64,000 nucleotides of DNA from Candidatus Caldarchaeum sp. Lineage in GTDB: Archaea; Thermoproteota; Nitrososphaeria_A; Caldarchaeales; Caldarchaeaceae. Positions 2 to 11,177 of this stretch are shown here, piece after piece. Each line of letters begins with the position of its first letter. The stretch's first letter is position 1. Under the pieces are notes generated by a model that was not told where the DNA came from, did not search any database, and saw nothing but the letters and a program-made list of their open reading frames with translations. The position numbers and the translations under genes are program-made. The stretch is taken from the NCBI GenBank assembly GCA_038885755.1, contig JAVZZH010000001.1, positions 387,155-451,154 of the forward strand, written 5' to 3'.

Positions 2-454
2 GCGATAATGAACATGGTGGATTTGGTCGACGACCCGCGTGTGGTGCCCGGAGGCGGGGCTATCGAGGCGGAGCTTGCGAAGAACTTGAGGCTCAACGCC
101 GGTAAGTTCTCCGGCAAGGAGCAGCTGGCTTTCATGGCTTTCGCTGAAGCGCTCGAAGTCATTCCGAGAACGCTGGCGGAGAACGCTGGTCTCGAGCCTG
201 TTGAGATAATGGCCCAGCTGCGACACGCGCACGAGAACAACGGAAAAAGCGTCGGCGTCAACATATTCGGCGGAGGAGTTGCCGACATGCTCAAAAACGG
301 AGTAATCGAGCCGGCCAAAGTCAAGATACATGCGCTGAGGTCTAGCTTCGAAGCCTCTTCGATGATTCTACGCATCGACGACGTCGTCGCAGCATCCAAG
401 AAGAAAGAGGAGAAGGAGAAGAAGAAGGAGGAATCCGAAACTCCGGAGTTCTAA
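2..454 (+). CDS. ths: Thermosome (group II chaperonin) subunit, C-terminal fragment; gene starts upstream of window
   Basis: The frame is open from the window edge. It carries VPGGGAIEAELA and IEPAKVKIHALRSSFEASSMILRIDDVV equatorial-domain motifs and a Lys/Glu-rich tail typical of thermosomes. Confidence 0.9.
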   Translation, partial: AIMNMVDLVDDPRVVPGGGAIEAELAKNLRLNAGKFSGKEQLAFMAFAEALEVIPRTLAENAGLEPVEIMAQLRHAHENNGKSVGVNIFGGGVADMLKNGVIEPAKVKIHALRSSFEASSMILRIDDVVAASKKKEEKEKKKEESETPEF

Positions 455-2178: not shown

Positions 2179-2724
2179 ATGAACCATCTCCTCAAATTAG
2201 CTTCCGCCGCCTTAGCCAGCTTCGCCATAATATTCCTTCTCTCAACTCTCGAGTTCACAGCGGAGCAGCCCATTCAGCTGGTCGTTGCGGCTGTGGTCTT
2301 AGCAGCCGTAGCAGCCGGCTTCGCTGGAAGATCCCCGTTTAGGGCTGCTGTGGGAGTCTTAATTGGCGGGGCGGCGGCTTTTACGCTGGCGTATTTCTGG
2401 GGCGTTAGGCTCTGGTCTCCTTCACCCGTACCCTCAGACCTACCTGTCGTAAGGATGATGCTCATAGGGGGCACCGCACTTCTGGCCGCCGGAGTCGGGC
2501 TTGTGGCCTCGGAAATTATATCTAAGCCCAAGCCGTCGGGTTTGAAGGAGGAGAAGCCGAAGCCGGTGAAGCAGCCTGTCGTCGAGCTTGAGGTTGTCAA
2601 GAAAGAGGTTCGAGATGTTGTTCAGGAGCCGGGAAACAGAGTTTGCAAGTTCTGCGAAAGCGTGATTCCAGCAGAGTCTGTCTTCTGCCCCATGTGCGGG
2701 GCAAAGCTGGTTGAAGCAGAGTGA
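2179..2724 (+). CDS. Membrane protein with C-terminal zinc-ribbon (CxxC...CxxC)
   Basis: It has four or five hydrophobic segments, a Lys/Pro/Glu linker, then CKFCESVIPAESVFCPMCGAKL. Its stop overlaps the helicase start (gagTGATGATGg). Confidence 0.7.
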   Translation: MNHLLKLASAALASFAIIFLLSTLEFTAEQPIQLVVAAVVLAAVAAGFAGRSPFRAAVGVLIGGAAAFTLAYFWGVRLWSPSPVPSDLPVVRMMLIGGTALLAAGVGLVASEIISKPKPSGLKEEKPKPVKQPVVELEVVKKEVRDVVQEPGNRVCKFCESVIPAESVFCPMCGAKLVEAE

Positions 2725-5573
2725 TGATGGACGGGAAATCTGCATCGGTGCTCAGCCTGCTGGTTAAGCCGCTTCAGGAAGCTGTTCTGGAGAGGTTCAG
2801 CGAGCTCACCGAGCCTCAGATCCAGAGCATTCCGAAGATACTCGAGGGTGAAAACCTCCTGCTGATGGCTCCCACGGGCACTGGGAAGACTGAGGCGGCG
2901 GTCATACCGCTGCTGAACAGGCTTCTGACGCAGCCGGGTGGAGAAGGGGTCAGGATGCTTTACATCACGCCGTTGAGAGCTCTCAACCGAGACCTTCTCG
3001 AAAGGGTGGAGTGGTGGGCCGCAAGGCTAGACATGACAGTGGGCGTGAGGCACGGCGATACGCTCCAGAGGGAGAGAAGAACCCAGACGCTAATGCCTCC
3101 AACCATCCTCATCACAACGCCCGAAACTCTCCAGATACTCCTAACAGCCCGCACCTTCCGTCAACATCTAAGACACGTAGAGGCGGTCGTCGTGGACGAG
3201 GTTCACGAGCTCGCCGGAGACAAAAGAGGCGCACAGCTATCGGTTGCGTTGGAGAGACTGGTCGAGATTACTGGAAGAGATTTTCAGAGGATCGGCCTAT
3301 CCGCCACCGTAGGCAGCCCTCAGAAGGTTGCATCCTTCCTAGCCGGCTGCGGAAGACGATGCAGCATCGTGAGGGTTCCGGTCGTCAGACAACTACAAAT
3401 CACAGTCGAGTATCCCACCCCGTCTCCAGAGGATTACCAGCTGGCTGAGATGCTGTCCATCTATCCGGACGTGGCGGCTCGAATGAGTCTGATCAAAACG
3501 TTAGTCGACAGCCACGAGTCGACGCTTGTATTCACCAACACACGTCCATTAGCCGAGGTTTTGACTAACAGGTTTAGGGCCTGGGACGAAGCTGCCCCCA
3601 TAGGTATTCACCACGGAAGTCTGTCGAAATCAACCCGGGTGGGTGCTGAGCAGGCTCTCAAGACTGGAGGTCTTTCGGGTGTTGTGTGCACGTCCTCTCT
3701 CGAGATGGGAATAGACGTCGGTAGGATCGAGCTCTGCATACAGTACAACTCGCCCCGTGAAGTCTCACGGCTCATCCAGAGGGTTGGAAGAAGCGGCCAT
3801 ACAATAAAACGGACGGCGAAAGGCGTGATAATTGTTGCGGATTCGGATGACGCTCTGGAAAGTCTGGTGATAGTCAGGAGAGCGCTTGAGGACGAGCTGG
3901 AGCCGACCGAGATTTTCGAAAACTCTTTCGACGTTCTGGCCCACCAGATAGCCGGGCTTGTGATAGAACGGGGTGAAATACATGTTGAAAACCTCGTCAA
4001 CATCCTGAGGCGTTCACACTGCTTTAGAAACATAGGGCCAGAGCAGGTCCTCAAGGTTGCTCAGCATCTCGAGAAACTCGGAGCCGTCTTGATAACGACG
4101 GAGAACATCATAACCCGGGGAGTCAAGCGCACGGTCCTGTACGACTACTACTTCAGCAACCTATCCATGATACCTGAGGAGAAACAATACCTTGTTGTGA
4201 ACGAGTCGACAGGCGAAGCCGTGGGAATACTCGACGAAGAGTTTGTAGCAGAGCACGGTGAGCCCGGAACAAGGTTCATACTGATGGGTAAAGCTTGGGA
4301 GATAATTCAGACCTCCAGCGAAAGAATCTATGTTGCGCCGCTGGAAAGCCTTGAAGGAGCTGTTCCCTCTTGGGTGGGCGACGAGATACCCGTACCGTAC
4401 CAAGTCGCTGAAGAAGTTGGAAGAATCAGGCGGGTTTATGCGGAGGCTTTACAGGCTGAAAAAGCCGACACGGCTCTGTCCGAGCTCTCCCAAGTCTATA
4501 GAACAGACATATCTTTGCTTAAAAAATCCCTCAGAGAGGTTGAGCAGCATCTTCGTCTTGGAATTCCAGTCCCCTCGGACAAGGTTTTCGTCCTCGAGGA
4601 GACCCCTCAGTACGTGGTTCTCCACATTACGGGAGGGCTGAAGGCTAACAGGACGATTTCGAGAGTTCTGGCGCATCGTCTAGCTTCGAGAACTGGGGCT
4701 GCGGTTGCGGTTCAGCAGGATGCCTACAGGATTGTCTTCGAGTCGAGGGAGATCGACGCAGACATGGTTGAAGACGAGTTGAAGAAGCTGCTGGAAGGAG
4801 ACTGGGCTGAAACCGTCGCTAGGGCGGTTGAGTCGTCGAGCCTTTTCAGGAGAAGGCTTGTGCACGTGGCTCGCAAGATGGGCGTGCTCAGCCGGGAGGC
4901 CAGCATACTCGACGTCAGCGCAGTCAAGCTCGCTGAGATGCTTAAGGACACGGTTGTCTACGAGGAAGCGGTCAACCACAGCCTCGTCGCAGACTTCGAC
5001 TCCACGACAGCCCTCACACTGGTAAATAGAATCGTCCAAGGGAGTACGGGTCTGGTTAAAGTGCGGCTTGAATCTCCCTCGCCTCTGGCCATGCTTACCA
5101 TAAACAGGTACAGCAGCGACATGGACGTCGTGGCTTCCGACAGGCTTGAGAAGCTTGTGCTTAACGCTGTGAGGGGAAGGCTGAACAACGAACCCATTAC
5201 CTTGGTGTGTGTTTCTTGCTGGAACTGGTACAGGCGATGCTTCGTCAAAGAGCTTGAGTCACGGCCTGTGTGCGGGTCGTGCGAGTCTACGAGGCTTGGA
5301 GTTTTGACCGTGGAGCCGGAGGAGTTGATGAACCTTCTCGCAAGGCGTGGCAAACCCTCCAACAGGAAGGAGCGTGGCATCCGGTCTCAAGCCGTCAAGA
5401 CAGCGGAGTTGGTGGACAGGTATGGGAAGGCAGCTGTTTTCACGCTTGCAAGCAAGTACCTCTCGCTAGGAGACGCCTCCGAGATCCTTGGTCAGGAGTC
5501 AAGCTTGGGGTCTAGGCTTGTCGAGCTCATCGTCGAGAGAGAGCGTAAAAAAATTCAGGAAATGTTCAGATAG
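2721..5573 (+). CDS. lhr: Lhr-like superfamily-2 DEAD/DEAH-box helicase (Lhr-core type, with C-terminal Cys cluster)
   Basis: Helicase motifs are APTGTGKTEAA (I), VVDEVHEL (II), GLSATVG (III), HHGSLS, TSSLEMGIDVG and QRVGRSGH (VI). A long DEAD-associated C-terminal region contains CVSCWNW...CGSCES. The start is ambiguous (GTG 2721, ATG 2724 or ATG 2727). Confidence 0.92.
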   Translation: MMMDGKSASVLSLLVKPLQEAVLERFSELTEPQIQSIPKILEGENLLLMAPTGTGKTEAAVIPLLNRLLTQPGGEGVRMLYITPLRALNRDLLERVEWWAARLDMTVGVRHGDTLQRERRTQTLMPPTILITTPETLQILLTARTFRQHLRHVEAVVVDEVHELAGDKRGAQLSVALERLVEITGRDFQRIGLSATVGSPQKVASFLAGCGRRCSIVRVPVVRQLQITVEYPTPSPEDYQLAEMLSIYPDVAARMSLIKTLVDSHESTLVFTNTRPLAEVLTNRFRAWDEAAPIGIHHGSLSKSTRVGAEQALKTGGLSGVVCTSSLEMGIDVGRIELCIQYNSPREVSRLIQRVGRSGHTIKRTAKGVIIVADSDDALESLVIVRRALEDELEPTEIFENSFDVLAHQIAGLVIERGEIHVENLVNILRRSHCFRNIGPEQVLKVAQHLEKLGAVLITTENIITRGVKRTVLYDYYFSNLSMIPEEKQYLVVNESTGEAVGILDEEFVAEHGEPGTRFILMGKAWEIIQTSSERIYVAPLESLEGAVPSWVGDEIPVPYQVAEEVGRIRRVYAEALQAEKADTALSELSQVYRTDISLLKKSLREVEQHLRLGIPVPSDKVFVLEETPQYVVLHITGGLKANRTISRVLAHRLASRTGAAVAVQQDAYRIVFESREIDADMVEDELKKLLEGDWAETVARAVESSSLFRRRLVHVARKMGVLSREASILDVSAVKLAEMLKDTVVYEEAVNHSLVADFDSTTALTLVNRIVQGSTGLVKVRLESPSPLAMLTINRYSSDMDVVASDRLEKLVLNAVRGRLNNEPITLVCVSCWNWYRRCFVKELESRPVCGSCESTRLGVLTVEPEELMNLLARRGKPSNRKERGIRSQAVKTAELVDRYGKAAVFTLASKYLSLGDASEILGQESSLGSRLVELIVERERKKIQEMFR

Positions 5574-6165
5574 GCTTCTCCTCTCCCAGCCCTTTTGAGA
5601 TGCTTGAGATAGCTTTTATCAACTCTTTCTGGTCGACCTCAGCTAGGGCCCTCCATCCCACGGCGAGCATGCCGTCGCCGAGGTCCATCAGGTATCCACG
5701 TCTGACAAACCTTTCAAGAGCAGCCTCGACACGCCACTTTGGAAGCTTCGACTCCAGCAAATCCGTCAAATCTTTCTTTGGAGCCTTACCGCCGCGAGTA
5801 AACAAGACGGCTAAAGAAGTAGACAACACCGCTAGGTCGTCTATCCTCCAGCCTGCAGCAACTATGTCCGACAAGCTCAGCGGGTCAGCCAGAGTGATGA
5901 AGTACCGAGCCCTGTCGTAGTCCTCCTCCGACGGCTCCTTGTCGGAAGGTGTTTCGAACAGCGTCTTCACCCTCAAGCCGAGCGGTTCGAGCCTATGGTT
6001 CAGGCTCTCCAGCACCTTCAGGTAGTTTTTACCGACTCTTCTCCGCAGCTCGTACCCCCTAACTCCGGGAAGCCTGTGGCTCGTGAACAGAAGCATCGCC
6101 ATAGCCGTCGAAAGCTTCTTCCTCGCAGCCGTCTGCTCTGGAGAGGCCTCAGTCAAGCACCCCAC
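5566..6165 (-). CDS. Tandem winged-helix protein, kite-like (ScpB / Nse3-MAGE-like pattern); third gene of SMC-like operon
   Basis: This 199-aa protein has two wH-like halves (AMAMLLFTSHRLPGVRGYELRRRVGKNYLKVLESLNHRLEPLGLRV and LAVLFTRGGKAPKKDLTDLLESKLPKWRVEAALERFVRRGYLM). It overlaps the upstream kleisin-like gene by 17 nt. The family assignment rests on pattern similarity only. Confidence 0.65.
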   Translation of the reverse strand: MGCLTEASPEQTAARKKLSTAMAMLLFTSHRLPGVRGYELRRRVGKNYLKVLESLNHRLEPLGLRVKTLFETPSDKEPSEEDYDRARYFITLADPLSLSDIVAAGWRIDDLAVLSTSLAVLFTRGGKAPKKDLTDLLESKLPKWRVEAALERFVRRGYLMDLGDGMLAVGWRALAEVDQKELIKAISSISKGLGEEKPI

Positions 6166-6931
6166 CCTTCTTCAGCACTACAACCATCGAGGCAACGTTC
6201 CCTCTCTTAACCTTCTTCTCCAACGGTCTCAGAGTTATTTGGCCAGTCAACGGGTTCCTCGACGCCTCCGCAAGCCCTTCGCTCAGCAGAAAGGCTGTCA
6301 AGTAGGCCCTTTCGAAAACCTTCTCAACGCCCTCCTTCATGACGAAGGACTTGTAGTCGAGGACGCCTTCCTCGTTCCTCTGCTCGAGCATTTCACGGTG
6401 AAGACGCGTCATATCGCTCTCCAGCAAGCTTCTCTCGCTGAAAACCCATCCTGCCACGGTCTCGCCGGTGCCGAGGCCTGTCTCCGAGCTTGACGGTTTC
6501 CATGAAGCTCTTGAGGGGAGGCTCATGAAGTACTCGATGCCTGAAACCGCCATCCCCAACGTTAGCTGCTCAGCGGTAGCTATGGGCCTCCAGCTGCTCG
6601 CCAGCGCTTCAGCCAGAGACTTCTTGTCTGCTTCGAGAACTTTGACGACTATTGTTTGAGCGTCGACGAACAGGGATGAGGCTCTGTCCTTAAGCCATTT
6701 GTGCTGGAGAGCTATGACCGTCGCTATTCTATAAATCGTCTCAGCGTCGAGGACCAGCAGGTCCGTGTTTTCGAATCTTTCAGCGATGGCCCTTAGCTTC
6801 ATCAGCATGTTTTTAATGTCCAGCGAGTAGGGGTCTGTGCCCGTCCTAGCGACAGAGTCGCACAGGGAAATGAGTTTCTCCAACTCCTCCCTAGCTAGTT
6901 TCAAGCTTTTCACTAGGCACCGCCTCCGCAA
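6149..6931 (-). CDS. Kleisin-like protein (ScpA-like architecture); second gene of SMC-like operon
   Basis: This 260-aa protein has an N-terminal helical segment (DPYSLDIKNMLMKLRAI...AETIYRIATVIALQHKWL) and a C-terminal wH-like segment (FERAYLTAFLLSEGLAEASRNPLTGQITLRPL), as in ScpA. It overlaps the SMC-like gene end. Alternative starts are GTG 6913 and TTG 6904. Confidence 0.65.
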   Translation of the reverse strand: MRRRCLVKSLKLAREELEKLISLCDSVARTGTDPYSLDIKNMLMKLRAIAERFENTDLLVLDAETIYRIATVIALQHKWLKDRASSLFVDAQTIVVKVLEADKKSLAEALASSWRPIATAEQLTLGMAVSGIEYFMSLPSRASWKPSSSETGLGTGETVAGWVFSERSLLESDMTRLHREMLEQRNEEGVLDYKSFVMKEGVEKVFERAYLTAFLLSEGLAEASRNPLTGQITLRPLEKKVKRGNVASMVVVLKKGGVLD

Positions 6932-8636
6932 CAGACACCTCAGACCTGCCTCTCACGTTCTGGACGAGTATCACGTTCATGTCGCTGCTGTAGGGAAGCC
7001 TGCCGGGAGTGATGATGATGTACTGGGCTTCGCCATCCCTGCCAGCCGTTGCCGTTAGGATGTTGATTATTCTCTCCCTATTGAGCGGGTCTAGATGAAC
7101 GTCGAACTCGTCGACAGCCCTGAAGGGAGACTTGATGTGTTTCTGGAGAGCGAGCAGAAAAGCCATCGTCGCTACGATCCGCTCGCCTCCGCTCTGCGTG
7201 TGTGCGTTCAGAAGAGTCGGCTCGACACCTCTGAACCCCACGTATATCTCAACAGAGGCCTTGTCTATGTCGTGGAGGTTCCTCAGCTCGATTTTACCCG
7301 AGCCGCCGACCAGAGATAAAATCCTCCTATACTCGGGCTCAACCGACTGTATGAGGTTTCGGACGAAGCTGCGCCACTTCTCCTTCCTGAACTCGGTCTC
7401 CTCCAACGCTTTCCGAGCGTTCTCGCTCAACTGCCTAGCCTTTAGCTCAGCTTCTCGAAACTTCGCCTCAGCCAGCATGAACATTTGCTCAGCCTGCATC
7501 GAAGGCTTACCGAGAGAAGCCAGCTGAAGCTCCACCGCTTTCAGTTCATCCAAAACCTCAACAGGCTTCCGCCCAGTCTCAATCCTCTGACTTCTGGATA
7601 ACGCTTCAGCAACCCTTCTCGCCAACTCTTTCTCAGCCGCCGCCAGCTCGTACTTGATGTCCCTCAACTCCGTCTCACGCATCTCCTTGAATGCTTCAGC
7701 TCTTCCAAGCTTTTGAGCGGCCTTAACTACTGCGTCAACATACTCTTCTAGGCCTGTATTCATGCTCTCTGACCTTATCTGTTGCAGCAACCGTGTACGG
7801 GCCGTTTCAGTCTCGTGAGCCGCGTCGCCAACCTCTCTGCCCAGCTTCTCAACATCCCTAACGACCGCCATCATCCTCTCAGCAAGCCTGTCCCTCGACT
7901 TCTCCGCCTCTCTCACCAAAGACCAGAGATGCTCGGCCTCCAGCACTGATTTACGCTCCTCCAGCTCTCGGACCAGCGTAAGCTTTTTGTATTCCTCCCG
8001 CCAGAAATCAACAGCCGCCCCAGCATCCTCGAGCGTCTTCCTCAACACAGTCTCCTCGGCGAGAAGGGCTGTGAGCTTCTGCTCCGCCTCCTTTATCCTC
8101 TCCCTCAAACCAGAAGCCCCTACAGCTTCCTCTATCATGGCCAGCTTCTCAACGCTGTCCCTGCTGACGAACTGCTCGATCATGTTTTGATGCATTATTA
8201 TCAGAATGTTGTCAGGGTTTATTCCAACCCTGGCCAATAGGTTCTCCACTTCAGCCTTCGTCCTGAACTTGTTGTTGACGTAGTGCCAGTACTCTCCGTT
8301 TTTCTTCAAAAACCTAGCTATCGACACAGAGTCGGACTGGATGGAGGGTATCGGCCTACGACCGTCGACAGGCTTGTTGTCCAGAACCACGACCACCCGG
8401 GCCGCGTCCATCCCTCTTCTTATCAAGTCGCTCAGCCGTTGGCCACGCTCCGTGTACGACTGGCCTAGGGCCACGGATATGGCTAGAAGAATGGATGATT
8501 TGCCTGCGCCGTTAGGGCCTACTATGACGTTGAGGCCGTTGGTCAGCTGGATGCGGCTGTACTCGTGGGACATGAAATTCTCTAGGATAACCTCTCTGAT
8601 GTAGGGCCTTGGCAGGTTCTCCGGGCTGGTCGTCAA
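6891..8636 (-). CDS. Short SMC-family ATPase, SMC5/6-like head, hinge-less (581 aa)
   Basis: The N-terminus reads YIREVILENFMSHEYSRIQL...GPNGAGKSS (Walker A). The signature motif is QSGGER and the Walker B motif is FRAVDEFDVHLD. QYIIITPG sits at the H-loop position. About 275 aa of heptad-rich coiled coil separate the head halves. The protein has no cysteine, so no Rad50 zinc hook, and no globular hinge. Confidence 0.85.
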   Translation of the reverse strand: MTTSPENLPRPYIREVILENFMSHEYSRIQLTNGLNVIVGPNGAGKSSILLAISVALGQSYTERGQRLSDLIRRGMDAARVVVVLDNKPVDGRRPIPSIQSDSVSIARFLKKNGEYWHYVNNKFRTKAEVENLLARVGINPDNILIIMHQNMIEQFVSRDSVEKLAMIEEAVGASGLRERIKEAEQKLTALLAEETVLRKTLEDAGAAVDFWREEYKKLTLVRELEERKSVLEAEHLWSLVREAEKSRDRLAERMMAVVRDVEKLGREVGDAAHETETARTRLLQQIRSESMNTGLEEYVDAVVKAAQKLGRAEAFKEMRETELRDIKYELAAAEKELARRVAEALSRSQRIETGRKPVEVLDELKAVELQLASLGKPSMQAEQMFMLAEAKFREAELKARQLSENARKALEETEFRKEKWRSFVRNLIQSVEPEYRRILSLVGGSGKIELRNLHDIDKASVEIYVGFRGVEPTLLNAHTQSGGERIVATMAFLLALQKHIKSPFRAVDEFDVHLDPLNRERIINILTATAGRDGEAQYIIITPGRLPYSSDMNVILVQNVRGRSEVSVAEAVPSEKLETS

Positions 8637-8776
8637 TCCTTCCGGCCTGCCTACGACTGAGGATAATATAAACTACCATCAACTCTCAAATCATACCGAT
8701 GTATGTCGTGGACAATTATGCCGGCCGCCGAACTCGCTAACATATATAGACACGTTTCAGGCACCCCCGTCTAAGC

Positions 8777-9907
8777 ATGTCGCAGGAGCTCGAAAGAATC
8801 GCAGCCATCAGAGCCCGTGAAGCGGTGAACTACGACAGGTCTGGACAGCGGCTTAAAGCCGTCAAGCTGTACCGGGAGGCGATCGAGTTGTTGTGGAAGC
8901 TTTACCGTCTGGCTCCCGACTCATCGGTCAAAAGGATCTACGCCGACAAGATTAAAGAGTATCAGAATAGGATTGAGGAGCTGTCGAACGAGTCTCCTCC
9001 GCCATTCAAGGATGTTCAGTTTAACCAGCCCGAGCCGCCACACTCCAAATCCAGCCTTTTCTTGGCTGAGAAACCCCGGGTTCGGTGGGACGATATAGTC
9101 AACATCGAGGAGGCTAAGAAAGCCATCAAGGAAAGCATAATATTCCCGACCAGAAGACCAGACCTTTTCCCGCTGGGCTGGCCGAGGGGGATTCTGCTCT
9201 TCGGCCCACCCGGTTGCGGCAAGACCCTCCTAGCGGCTGCGGTTGCGTCGGAGCTTGATGCAGGATTTTACTCCCTCGACGCCGCAAGCATCATGTCTAA
9301 GTGGCTGGGGGAGTCGGAGCGGAACATCTCCAAGATATTCAACACCTGCAGGAGCGAAGCTAGGTCAGGCAAGCCTGTCATCATCTTCATCGACGAGGTT
9401 GACTCACTAACCACCGAGAGGTTCATGGAGGTGGGTGGTGAGGCAAGGGTTAGGAACCAGCTTCTGAAGGAGATGGACAGCATACTTGACAAGGGTAGGA
9501 AAGACTTTCTCTACGTCATCGCGGCGACGAACAAGCCTTGGCTGCTTGATGAGCCCTTCATCAGAAGGTTCCAGAAGAGGGTCTACGTCTCGCTGCCCGA
9601 CATCGACGCAAGGCTGCATCTCTTCAAAATGTACACCAACGGCCTCAACCTCGACAGCGGTGTTGAACTCGCTCAGCTGGCTAAAATAACCGACGGCTAC
9701 TCTGCGGCAGACATCCACGACATATGCGTTGAGGCTCAGCTACGCGTCGTCAGCGAATACTTCTCCTCCTCCAACGGGGATGAGGGAGAGCCCAGACCGA
9801 TTACTATGGATGACTTCATGGAGATTATCAAGAAGAGAAAGCACTCGATTGTTCTGGAGAATTTGAAGAAGCTTCTGGACTGGAACTCGAAGTACGGAAC
9901 TAGCTAG
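8777..9907 (+). CDS. cdvC: Vps4-like AAA+ ATPase CdvC (MIT domain + AAA)
   Basis: It has an N-terminal MIT-like three-helix region (AVKLYREAIELLWKLY...KIKEYQNRIEEL), Walker A GPPGCGKT, Walker B IIFIDEVDS and a Vps4-type C-terminus. Confidence 0.93.
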   Translation: MSQELERIAAIRAREAVNYDRSGQRLKAVKLYREAIELLWKLYRLAPDSSVKRIYADKIKEYQNRIEELSNESPPPFKDVQFNQPEPPHSKSSLFLAEKPRVRWDDIVNIEEAKKAIKESIIFPTRRPDLFPLGWPRGILLFGPPGCGKTLLAAAVASELDAGFYSLDAASIMSKWLGESERNISKIFNTCRSEARSGKPVIIFIDEVDSLTTERFMEVGGEARVRNQLLKEMDSILDKGRKDFLYVIAATNKPWLLDEPFIRRFQKRVYVSLPDIDARLHLFKMYTNGLNLDSGVELAQLAKITDGYSAADIHDICVEAQLRVVSEYFSSSNGDEGEPRPITMDDFMEIIKKRKHSIVLENLKKLLDWNSKYGTS

Positions 9908-10691
9908 CCTCCGCGACCTCCAGCTGTATTAAGCCCTTATCGTGAAGGTTTTTCAAAACTTCCGAAGCTGTCTGAGGGTCTATCTTGAGCTCAGCTGCGA
10001 GAGCGTGAAGGTCGAGCTCCTCATCCTCCCTATCAACGACGTAGCTGTAAACAGTTTTCTCCAAGTCTGTAAGCCTCGGGGCCTCGGGGAACGATTGACG
10101 CACCTTCTCAGCAGCTATCCTCCTAGCTTCGTCGAGGATGAACGAAACTTCCTGAGAGACGTTCGCGTTGCTGTCTGACACGGGCTCGACGTAGACGCCC
10201 GAGCTGGTGATGAAGTCCTCGATCAACACCATTAGGTTCCTCAAGTGTTCAGAAGCCTCGGGTGAGACGTCCGCTATCTCGGCGAGAGTGTTCTGAAGCA
10301 TGGCCGACAAGGGCCGGATGAGGGAGAGGGCCTCGCCCAGCTCAAGGATGCTTTCAAGCCTAATCTTAACCTGCAGCAGTACAAGCTGGCTGTGAAGAAC
10401 TATTCCGGCCAGTTTTTTAATCTCAGCAATCTCCGAGGCATAGATCTTTGCTTTTTCATCGTCCTTCGACTGGAGTGCGTCTACACATTTTTCGAAGTAT
10501 TCACGGCTCCTGGCCAGCATCTCTTTATACTTGTTGTTGAGCCTCTCGATGTGTCCGTTGAGCGAGGATATTGACTTCTCGATCCTCGCAGACATCTCCT
10601 CTTGAATATCCACCAGCAATGGTTCTTCCGCCTTCTGTTCGGGCCAGTCGTTCCTACGTCTCAGAAACCCAATCAATCCGCCTGTCTGCAC
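9900..10691 (-). CDS. cdvB: ESCRT-III-like CdvB with C-terminal winged helix
   Basis: It is collinear with my recollection of Sulfolobus CdvB. Matching segments are AKIYASEIAEIKKLAGIVLHSQLVLLQVKIRLESILELGE, the Pro-rich FPEAPRL (MIM2-like) and the wH DLHALAAELKIDPQTASEVLKNLHDKGLIQLE. Confidence 0.9.
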   Translation of the reverse strand: MQTGGLIGFLRRRNDWPEQKAEEPLLVDIQEEMSARIEKSISSLNGHIERLNNKYKEMLARSREYFEKCVDALQSKDDEKAKIYASEIAEIKKLAGIVLHSQLVLLQVKIRLESILELGEALSLIRPLSAMLQNTLAEIADVSPEASEHLRNLMVLIEDFITSSGVYVEPVSDSNANVSQEVSFILDEARRIAAEKVRQSFPEAPRLTDLEKTVYSYVVDREDEELDLHALAAELKIDPQTASEVLKNLHDKGLIQLEVAEAS

Positions 10692-10763: not shown

Positions 10764-11177
10764 CTAGGAGCATCTGGACAGGTAGATGTCCTCTCTTTCG
10801 TACTCGGCCATCCATGTTTTTGTCGAGCTGGGTTTGAGCCTCAAGCCGACGAGCCTGTAGCCCTCCGGAGTTTCAGCTATGGAGGAGGCAAGCGCCTGTT
10901 CGATAGAGTCTGCGATTCTTTCCTTCACAACGCGCTTCTCGCCGCTCTCCCTCTCGGCACGATAGCATACTAGACACAGCGTTTTTCCACGGAGCACGGT
11001 GGAAGTAAACCTTCTGACCGAGGAACCGCATTTATCGCAGACAACCATCTGGAGACCGCATTTTCGGCAGACAGCTCCGTAGCCTGCGACGTAGTGGAAT
11101 GTCTCGCCCGGCTTTGACTCGGCTCCGCAAGCCCTGCATACGGTTTTCTCGCCGGTTTTCTGGAAGTGTCCAAGCAT
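10764..11177 (-). CDS. Zinc-ribbon protein (four CxxC pairs) with unknown C-terminal domain
   Basis: The four pairs are CRAC, CRKC, CDKC and CLVC, followed by about 60 aa of non-Cys sequence. It lies 72 nt upstream of cdvB on the same strand. No family was recognised. Confidence 0.65.
   Translation of the reverse strand: MLGHFQKTGEKTVCRACGAESKPGETFHYVAGYGAVCRKCGLQMVVCDKCGSSVRRFTSTVLRGKTLCLVCYRAERESGEKRVVKERIADSIEQALASSIAETPEGYRLVGLRLKPSSTKTWMAEYEREDIYLSRCS

Follow-up and report, generated by a model that had tools for sequence, protein, structure and literature searches.

The window analysed here, a 64,000 nucleotide stretch of Candidatus Caldarchaeum DNA, contains three overlapping minus-strand open reading frames which encode an SMC ATPase, an Nse4-like kleisin and an Nse1/3-like kite protein. 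When the longest open reading frames are taken, the genes span 6891-8636 (581 aa), 6149-6931 (260 aa) and 5566-6165 (199 aa), and the overlaps of 41 and 17 nt given in a preliminary description of this DNA were reproduced. Database gene calls and homologue N-termini preferred later starts for the two partner genes, a GTG at 6913 for the kleisin (254 aa, P0121) and a TTG at 6156 for the kite (196 aa, P0179), with which the genes overlap by 23 and 8 nt. Upstream of the SMC gene, with its centre approximately 32 nt from the TTG start, lies the TATA-like box TTTATATTAT; this position suggests a near-leaderless transcript, and the trio is probably transcribed as one such unit. A second TATA-like box was observed at approximately 8741-8750, for the divergent cdvC gene. 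The GC content of the operon is that of its surroundings, and neighbouring genes in the window encode thermosome, SufBD, CdvB/C and Lhr proteins. The coordinates of all features are presented in Table 1.

Table 1. Features of the SMC operon and its flanks in the window, with the evidence for each.
Feature	Residues	Position	Strand	Evidence
SMC5/6-related SMC ATPase, 581 aa, without hinge or zinc hook		6891..8636	-	Pfam SMC_N, PDB matches, AlphaFold2
Walker A, GPNGAGKSS	40-48	8493..8519	-	Nearly all positions invariant in 45-sequence alignment A3
Coiled-coil apex, 7-residue loop in the place of hinge or hook	289-295	7752..7772	-	AlphaFold2
Two breaks in the descending helix (helix 358-375 between them)	349-357 and 376-381	7494..7592	-	AlphaFold2
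ABC signature, QSGGER	481-486	7179..7196	-	S482-R486 invariant in A3
Walker B and D-loop, FRAVDEFDVHLD	505-516	7089..7124	-	Nearly all positions invariant in A3
ITPG at the H-loop position	542-545	7002..7013	-	I542, T543 and P544 invariant in A3
Nse4-like kleisin, 254 aa from GTG 6913 (260 aa from TTG 6931)		6149..6913	-	Family profile, Pfam, position
Nse1/Nse3/MAGE-like kite, tandem winged helix, 196 aa from TTG 6156 (199 aa from GTG 6165)		5566..6156	-	AlphaFold2, Foldseek, Pfam
TATA-like box, TTTATATTAT		8663..8672	-	Read from sequence; consensus-level inference only
Convergent Lhr helicase, aLhr1 type, Cys-rich C-terminus (CVSC...CGSC)		2721..5573	+	Pfam DEAD, Helicase_C, WH_Lhr, DEAD_assoc

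The order SMC, kleisin, kite on one strand is kept in nearly all of 80 related loci, and among species-representative genomes at least 560 stretches have a confirmed relative of the kite. Given this synteny and the number of kite relatives, the arrangement is not a chance effect of open reading frames. The three-gene operon is real, and the earlier observation of it is confirmed.

The SMC ATPase matched Pfam SMC_N with an E-value of 1.1e-34, and its homologues (97% to 49% identical) are approximately 575-620 aa long. All of the ATPase motifs quoted earlier were found and are invariant or nearly so in the alignment of 45 homologues. At the H-loop position the ITPG sequence of the ATPase aligned with QYFLITPKLL in yeast Smc5 and with QTIFITP in a fungal Smc6; both proteins have the T-P pair that the preliminary description had given as the Smc5/6 flavour. 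In phmmer searches of the PDB the best matches were Smc5 (5.6e-35) and Smc6 (2.5e-32), followed by archaeal Smc (2e-26) and Rad50 (approximately 1e-8). A profile search of 1.84 billion proteins, in which the source was looked up for some of the matches, gave eukaryotic proteins, including an annotated Smc6, as the first matches outside the archaeal family among those looked up. Judged by these E-values and by the order of the profile matches, Smc5/6 of eukaryotes is a closer relative of the ATPase than canonical SMC, Rad50 or RecN, as had been proposed. Published trees likewise place such archaeal SMCs with Smc5/6 (van Hooff et al., bioRxiv 10.1101/2024.01.07.573240; Yoshinaga and Inagaki 2021).

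Canonical SMC proteins have a globular hinge between long coiled coils and a total length of approximately 1,100-1,200 aa. The AlphaFold2 model of the window ATPase (mean pLDDT 84.6) contains a head, neck, joint and short arm with a 7-residue end loop, the head halves being separated by approximately 267 residues (175-441) which are predicted to include a helix (175-288), the loop and a second helix (296-348). No globular hinge was detected, either as a Pfam SMC_hinge match or in the model, and no zinc hook is present, the window ATPase having no cysteine and each of the 45 homologues either 0 or 1. The apex loop and the lack of cysteine bear out the earlier claim of an ATPase with neither hinge nor hook. 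The apex is the least conserved block of the protein (0.37) and varies in length by up to approximately 100 residues among relatives, whose insertions all fall after residue 291. We interpret the paired breaks in the modelled descending helix as the SMC joint; residues G349, R356 and G376 at these breaks are invariant or nearly so in the 45-sequence alignment, and the top Foldseek match of the model was the head, coiled coil and joint of P. yayanosii Smc (5xei). Each arm comprises approximately 115 residues and would be approximately 17 nm long, and since such short arms end in a variable loop, a ring cannot be closed through a hinge or zinc hook. The operon SMC is short in all related loci, with 576-620 aa, or 635-690 aa in Bathyarchaeia. 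In the Thermoproteota sampled this corresponds to roughly half to three-fifths of the normal length, and those SMCs examined had a variable apex with neither hinge nor CxxC hook.

The window kleisin alone gave no database match, and its assignment was made through the family profile. This profile (A1) matched yeast Nse4 (7ymd_A, 1.8e-4) and human EID3/NSE4B (3.5e-3); the match spans the C-terminal winged helix only, the N-terminal domain being matched to nothing. Pfam Nse4_C was matched by 13 of 34 family members, with a best E-value of 9.9e-7, and Pfam ScpA by none of the 34. These matches support an Nse4-type kleisin as the middle protein, in line with the initial kleisin reading.

Similarly, the window kite alone gave no significant match and was assigned through family profiles, in which Pfam MAGE was matched by 5 and SMC_Nse1 by 3 of 33 members, and through one AlphaFold2 model (pLDDT 79.7). 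The model consists of two winged-helix units only, with no RING domain. Its top Foldseek matches were Nse3 and Nse1 in 7dg2 (5.4e-7 and 1e-5), MAGE-G1/NSE1 (5hvq), MAGEA4 and yeast Nse3, with TM-scores of approximately 0.5-0.56, while MukE, JetB (2.9e-3) and ScpB ranked below the Nse/MAGE proteins. Fold and Pfam matches together support a kite of Nse1/Nse3/MAGE type, and the tandem winged-helix kite first suggested for this protein was thus upheld.

The convergent aLhr1 helicase gene, which had been described as abutting the 3' end of the operon, overlaps the 3' end of the kite gene by 8 nt and lies outside the operon transcript. It represents the most persistent flanking gene family, being convergent downstream of the operon in 35 of 69 related loci and directly abutting the kite gene in 27, and it is missing from most Bathyarchaeia and Wolframiiraptor loci. 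Genes cdvC and cdvB adjoin the operon in the window. Four Bathyarchaeia loci are similar: three have CdvB-like and CdvC-like neighbours, and the fourth, which is partial, a CdvB-like one. Adjacency to Cdv genes is confined to approximately 10 of the 80 loci. An Asgard relative of the operon was found in Ca. Freyarchaeum deiterrae (locus L082), where an SMC gene is followed by kleisin-like and kite-like genes. This SMC (835 aa, 258 bits against the A3 profile) has a Pfam SMC_hinge match, and because the hinge is kept in this relative the ancestor was probably ring-forming.

The SMC5/6-related clade of archaeal SMCs was first defined by Yoshinaga and Inagaki (2021), and operons of an SMC with Nse4-like and Nse1/3-like genes were described from TACK and Asgard archaea by van Hooff, Raas, Tromer and Eme (bioRxiv 10.1101/2024.01.07.573240, 2024/2025). 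Their Caldarchaeales example, HRbin02 (BEHE01000017.1 genes _4, _3, _2), was recovered in our set as locus L022, with an SMC of 589 aa that is approximately 52% identical to the window SMC. In its three families, gene order and strand the window operon shows no essential difference from the published archaeal SMC5/6-related complex. The preliminary description had stated that dedicated kleisin and kite partners were undescribed; that statement had concerned proteins of ASRP/coalescin type, and for operons such as this one, including those of Caldarchaeales, it is superseded by the same paper. In the table of that paper Caldarchaeum subterraneum_A has the SMC and kite, and the Nse4-related kleisin, the set for which was downsampled, is scored absent, whereas our Caldarchaeum window has a kleisin gene in the middle of the trio. 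For Caldarchaeum the table also records genes of ScpA-like and ScpB-like type, and for HRbin02 the two operons, each complete. The kind of operon is already known, and only details seem new. The short hinge-less architecture and the Lhr neighbour are unmentioned in the text and supplements of that paper, and in the literature we found there seems to be no report of a missing hinge in the Thermoproteota clade as against the hinge of the Asgard relative, of convergent aLhr1 as the most persistent neighbour or of Cdv cell-division genes recurring nearby.

Among solved structures, eukaryotic Smc5/6 is the nearest relative of each of the three proteins, and the T-P pair and the kleisin-plus-kite architecture are common to both systems. 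It consists of Smc5-Smc6-Nse4-Nse1-Nse3 together with Nse2 and Nse5/6, whereas SMC and kite are each encoded by a single gene at the archaeal locus; homodimers are therefore presumed for the archaeal complex in place of the Smc5/Smc6 and Nse1/Nse3 heterodimers. The eukaryotic SMCs are approximately 1,100 aa long in contrast to the hinge-less 581 aa of the archaeal protein, and Nse1 has the RING domain which the archaeal kite lacks. No Nse2, Nse5 or Nse6 gene was found near the operon. With a single SMC and a single kite of two winged helices, the locus does not belong to the eukaryotic-type holocomplex. Smc-ScpAB resembles the predicted complex in the fold of head, neck and joint; it too is encoded in one operon and combines an SMC homodimer with a single kleisin and a kite dimer. 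The window SMC, however, has neither hinge nor long arms and its partners matched Nse4 and Nse1/3/MAGE, not ScpA/ScpB. Canonical SMC was rejected on NCBIfam scores (SMC_prok_A 185 bits against a cut-off of 729, SMC_prok_B 141 against 567) and on the 581 aa length, the 7-residue apex loop and the missing SMC_hinge match. Rad50/SbcC, for which a zinc hook and a neighbouring Mre11/SbcD nuclease gene would be expected, was also rejected: no Rad50 model scored above 74 bits, the cut-offs being 700-1,000, the protein has no cysteine, and its neighbours are kleisin, kite, Lhr and CdvC genes.

The locus very probably encodes the Thermoproteota form of the archaeal SMC5/6-related complex, which by analogy would act as a housekeeping ATP-gated DNA clamp. 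As in the structures of Smc-ScpAB and Smc5/6, two copies of the 581-aa ATPase would engage head to head around two ATP, one Nse4-like kleisin would connect one head, at its neck, with the second head, at its cap, and an Nse1/3-like kite homodimer would be seated on the kleisin. The assembled 2:1:2 complex would be an ATP-gated clamp with DNA held on top of the heads, and a local DNA clamp or sensor appears more likely than a long-range loop extruder. Such a clamp may serve as a housekeeping genome-maintenance factor beside canonical Smc-ScpAB, which the published table lists for related genomes (bioRxiv 10.1101/2024.01.07.573240), possibly at replication or recombination intermediates. The housekeeping character is suggested by the at least 560 stretches with a kite relative, the unexceptional GC content, the housekeeping neighbours, and the absence of plasmid or phage matches to the kite and of defence matches for the partners. 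A role in genome maintenance is hinted at by the conserved aLhr1 gene, a link between genes that are convergent and not co-transcribed. It is possible, though rather unlikely, that this clamp without hinge, hook or closed ring is kept with aLhr1 by selection, as a forerunner of the eukaryotic Smc5/6-helicase partnership in fork or junction processing.

Alternatively, the arm tips could dimerise non-covalently to give a small SMC-kleisin ring, so that the proteins would form a full ring-forming or loop-extruding complex engaged in global chromosome organisation or in coupling segregation to Cdv-based division. We consider this unlikely. The ATPase motifs, neck and joint-like break are all conserved, Cdv genes adjoin the operon in the window and in the four Bathyarchaeia loci, and the ancestor probably formed rings. 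Conversely, a specific dimerisation interface would not be expected to show the low conservation and variable length of the apex; the arms are short, canonical Smc-ScpAB genes are also present in related genomes, and Cdv adjacency is restricted to the minority of loci given above.

A defence role with plasmids or viruses as targets, as for Wadjet, Lamassu or the restriction by eukaryotic Smc5/6, is highly improbable; the complex would then detect extrachromosomal DNA and call in a nuclease whose gene lies in another place. Although the full-length ATPase matched the PADLOC models mad3 (1.5e-30) and LmuB (3.7e-22), and ATPases of LmuB type are of comparable length, these models are generic ones for SMC_N and ABC heads, and no defence family was matched by the partners. 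Restriction of viral DNA by eukaryotic Smc5/6 is described in the literature, and the kite model has its weak match to JetB, but Nse-type proteins rank above JetB and MukE. No effector gene (JetD/Toprim, LmuA or other nuclease) was found in or beside the operon, which agrees with the absence of JetD/Toprim recorded earlier; vertical conservation of the trio extends over hundreds of species, in a setting of housekeeping genes and with a GC content equal to that of its surroundings, and searches of plasmid and phage collections with the kite gave no match. Wadjet (JetABCD)/MksBEF, for which a JetD/Toprim nuclease with MukF-like and MukE-like partners would be expected, was rejected on the lack of partner matches in PADLOC, the lack of an adjoining nuclease gene and the Foldseek ranking of the kite; moreover, none of the 25 top-ranking PADLOC models for the ATPase was a Jet model. 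Lamassu was rejected despite the LmuB match, as neither LmuA nor LmuC was found and the partners are Nse-like.

The suggested kinship with the ASRPs (coalescin ClsN, Sph1/2), according to which the protein would shape chromosome compartments as coalescin does, is scarcely credible; the tests of motif and score already contradict it. The ASRPs are likewise archaeal SMC-superfamily ATPases of approximately 600 aa with short coiled coils, but the NCBIfam ASRP model (NF045487) matched at only 37.3 bits (1.2e-9) against a cut-off of 300, below SMC_prok_A, Rad50 and RecF models, and a zinc-hook motif is carried by the vast majority of ASRPs whereas the window ATPase has no cysteine but has kleisin and kite partners. 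In published trees the SMC5/6-related SMCs of archaea fall within the SMC clade and separate from the ASRPs, and the ASRP paper nowhere mentions a kleisin (PMC9389158).

As already recognized in the literature, which for these operons consists of sequence analysis only, no other prokaryotic systems are as closely related to eukaryotic Smc5/6, and they bear on the origin of the eukaryotic SMC repertoire. A naturally hinge-less SMC with kleisin and kite would offer a compact, thermostable subject for structures of the SMC head module. It would also test models that need a hinge for DNA loading or loop extrusion, and if the clamp indeed works without a closed ring, it would show in minimal form which SMC activities depend on a hinge.

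Two longer paralogues from Bathyarchaeia (P0324 and P0327, 1,016-1,047 aa) scored 511-547 bits against the A3 profile. Their CxxC motif was likewise not met in the literature found; a central CDKCG motif was read in both. At the one such locus examined the paralogue stands alone, without kleisin or kite genes.

The three overlapping minus-strand ORFs of the preliminary description (581, 260 and 199 aa) were reproduced by ORF listing, with overlaps of 41 nt and 17 nt between the longest ORFs (coordinates in the table below). Public gene calls and the N-termini of homologues favoured later starts for the kleisin and kite genes, from which the overlaps are 23 and 8 nt. The position of a TATA-like box relative to the TTG start of the SMC gene suggests a near-leaderless operon transcript. 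A second SMC-like gene was looked for within the window and none was found.

Features of the SMC operon, its flanking genes and the ATPase model
Feature	Position	Strand	Remarks
SMC ATPase ORF	6891-8636	minus	581 aa; TTG start at 8636
Kleisin ORF	6149-6931	minus	260 aa (longest ORF); 254 aa in gene call P0121, later start GTG 6913
Kite ORF	5566-6165	minus	199 aa (longest ORF); 196 aa in gene call P0179, later start TTG 6156
TATA-like box	8663-8672		Centred ~32 nt upstream of SMC TTG 8636; consensus only
Lhr helicase gene, aLhr1 type	2721-5573	plus	Cys-rich C-terminus; converges on kite gene, 3' ends overlap 8 nt
cdvC	8777-9907	plus	NF041006, 3e-145
cdvB-like gene	9900-10691	minus	CdvB1/B2, 2e-28; C-terminal winged helix
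N-terminal head half	residues 1-172		AlphaFold2 model
Ascending single helix	residues 175-288		AlphaFold2 model
Apex loop, 7 residues	residues 289-295		AlphaFold2 model
Return helix with breaks	breaks at residues 349-357 and 376-381		AlphaFold2 model
C-terminal head half	residues 445-569		AlphaFold2 model

The top database match of the ATPase was a 97% identical protein from Candidatus Caldarchaeum, to which the window also belongs (Caldarchaeales, Thermoproteota), and Pfam SMC_N was matched at 1.1e-34. When all PDB sequences were searched, yeast and human Smc5 were the best matches (5.6e-35), followed by Smc6 (2.5e-32), with Pyrococcus Smc (2e-26) and Rad50 (~1e-8) ranking lower. A family profile built from 45 sequences was run on a set of 1.84 billion representative proteins; the archaeal family, mostly 555–685 aa, ranked first, and proteins of ~1,050–1,200 aa appeared from ~200 bits downward. 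All four of the latter for which sources were looked up were eukaryotic (three fungal), one being annotated as Smc6. The ATPase motifs quoted previously were all found and were invariant over the 45 homologues, and the T-P at the H-loop position, which had been called the Smc5/Smc6 flavour, does align with the same dipeptide in both Smc5 and Smc6. Models of canonical SMC, Rad50, RecN, archaea-specific SMC-related proteins (ASRP) and arcadin-4 all scored far under their curated thresholds. ASRP/coalescin, Rad50, RecN, canonical SMC, Wadjet and Lamassu were each considered and rejected on grounds of scores, motifs and context. A proposed kinship with ASRP/coalescin found no support in this cysteine-free protein, and Yoshinaga et al. 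(2022) set the SMC5/6-related archaeal SMCs apart from the ASRPs, the vast majority of which have a zinc hook.

The ATPase had been described as lacking both a globular hinge and a zinc hook, and this was borne out by its AlphaFold2 model (mean pLDDT 84.6), in which a short loop occupies the apex, and by the absence of any cysteine. The top structural match of the model was 5xei, the head, coiled coil and joint of Pyrococcus yayanosii Smc (E = 7e-23, TM 0.59), and the next were Smc5/6 heads. The modelled layout together with these matches indicates that the ATPase is a natural equivalent of an SMC head-neck-joint module that lacks a hinge and has only a short distal arm. Conservation is lowest at the apex, and all insertions in relatives sit within this block. 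Among the aligned operon-encoded SMCs, those of putative Bathyarchaeia and of a small number of further lineages have 40–100 additional apical residues, which read as coiled coil, and in those extended proteins the CxxC motif was absent.

Searched singly, the 260-aa and 199-aa proteins had no significant match in Pfam, NCBIfam, PADLOC or PDB (best SMC_Nse1, E = 0.12), so family alignments were needed. The kleisin profile (34 members) matched yeast Nse4 (7ymd_A) at 1.8e-4 and human EID3/NSE4B at 3.5e-3, both matches spanning the C-terminal winged helix including the previously noted AYLTAFLLSEG segment, and the N-terminal domain had no match. Pfam Nse4_C was matched by 13 of the 34 members and ScpA by none, which places the protein as a kleisin of the Nse4 type. 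The link of the kite to Nse1/3/MAGE comes from Pfam matches of single family members (MAGE in 5/33, SMC_Nse1 in 3/33) and a fold search; the family profile had no match among PDB sequences. An AlphaFold2 model of the kite (pLDDT 79.7) contained two winged-helix units, and its best PDB folds were Nse3 and Nse1 in 7dg2, MAGE-G1/NSE1, MAGEA4 and yeast Nse3, with MukE, JetB and ScpB ranked lower. Model, fold search and Pfam members agree with a two-winged-helix kite of the Nse1/Nse3/MAGE type; Nse3/MAGE was one of the two patterns first proposed, ScpB being the other.

A synteny scan with the kite profile, using one genome per species, gave at least 560 stretches with a confirmed relative, of which the best 80 loci were kept; these came from Caldarchaeales, other Nitrososphaeria, Bathyarchaeia and Methanomethylicia. 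The neighbourhood of the trio is conserved across the sampled Thermoproteota: of the 80 loci, nearly all of those with sufficient upstream DNA have the order SMC-kleisin-kite on one strand. The SMC measured 576–620 aa, or 635–690 aa in Bathyarchaeia. The exceptions in order were L016, in which the SMC gene lies on the other strand 5 kb downstream, and L027 and L030 (Calditenuaceae/Caldarchaeales), in which the kite gene has no SMC or kleisin gene inside 7 kb. A further SMC-like ORF of ~697 aa, weakly related to the family (E ~1e-12 to its profile), is present in several Bathyarchaeia loci (L033, 240-2333 on the minus strand; L035, L058, L059 and L069), on the opposite strand and ~2 kb upstream of the operon.

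In the Asgard archaeon Ca. Freyarchaeum deiterrae (L082, 3625-8632) we found an 835-aa SMC relative with a Pfam SMC_hinge match, followed downstream by a 211-aa gene matching the kleisin profile (3.8e-7) and a 167-aa gene matching the kite profile (2.7e-12). This represents the same operon, with the hinge kept. An AAA gene overlapping its start was tested as a CdvC orthologue, which would have paralleled the cdvC gene beside the present operon, and proved to be a generic AAA ATPase. Long paralogues of the SMC head family, 1,016–1,047 aa, occur in Bathyarchaeia (P0324, P0327; L081, 2105-5248); the two inspected by sequence contain a central CDKCG motif (CxxC, zinc-hook-like), and no kleisin or kite gene adjoined the paralogue at the one locus examined. 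A hinge is present in eukaryotic Smc5/6, in canonical SMCs and in the Asgard relative, so we infer that parsimony favours its loss in Thermoproteota.

SMC5/6-related archaeal SMC homologues were defined in TACK archaea by Yoshinaga and Inagaki (2021). Operons that join such SMCs to Nse4-related kleisins and Nse1/3-related kites were reported from TACK and Asgard archaea by van Hooff et al. (bioRxiv 2024, version May 2025), so that the statement that dedicated partners had not been described was out of date. Their example from Caldarchaeales HRbin02 (BEHE01000017.1 genes _4, _3 and _2) is our locus L022; in their table, compiled from downsampled sets, Caldarchaeum subterraneum_A has the SMC and kite and the kleisin is absent. 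The operon type had thus been described, bioinformatically only, and the claim of novelty was wrong. The three-gene operon itself was confirmed, and its reading as a Smc5/6-like SMC with kleisin and kite was largely right. Hinge loss, protein length and Lhr are not discussed in the preprint and its supplements, and we found neither hinge-less SMC5/6-related archaeal SMCs nor an Lhr link in open-access papers and bioRxiv. The operon's interest lies in its hinge-less state, not discussed in the papers searched, and in its Lhr association.

With the family identities, intact ATPase motifs, hinge-less architecture and conserved operon established, the solved Smc-ScpAB and Smc5/6 structures offer an analogy by which two heads would engage as an ATP-bound homodimer, the Nse4-like kleisin would bridge it and a kite homodimer would clamp DNA on the heads. 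With modelled arms of ~115 residues and an unconserved tip, the ATPase cannot close a ring via hinge or hook. We therefore favour a local DNA clamp that would serve genome maintenance, perhaps jointly with aLhr1. Alternatively, the complex may organise the chromosome globally or take part in its segregation. Defence is unlikely because there is no effector in or next to the operon, inheritance is vertical in a housekeeping context, and the kite had no match in plasmid and phage collections.

A Cys-rich C-terminus like that of the convergent Lhr gene is a mark of aLhr1 (PMC8301817). Among 69 related loci, 35 have Lhr downstream of the operon and facing it from the other strand (L001-L022, L029, L032, L039, L051, L056, L057, L068, L073-L075, L077, L079 and L080), and in 27 it directly abuts the kite gene; this arrangement spans several classes (Caldarchaeales, other Nitrososphaeria, Methanomethylicia). 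No other flanking family came near Lhr in persistence (34 loci vs 15 for the runner-up). A published survey of Lhr context across archaea reported no conserved neighbour, and adjacency to the SMC operon is mentioned neither there nor in the SMC preprint. Upstream of the SMC gene, in divergent arrangement, are the cdvC and cdvB-like genes, with a 140-nt promoter region in common. In Bathyarchaeia such genes are found downstream of the kite instead: three loci (L044, L049 and L053) have both a CdvB-like and a CdvC-like gene there, and the partial locus L041 has a CdvB-like gene alone. A 137-aa cysteine-rich ORF (10764-11177, minus strand) with several CxxC pairs and no family match adjoins the cdvB-like gene, as it also does in Caldarchaeum loci L002 and L004-L008.
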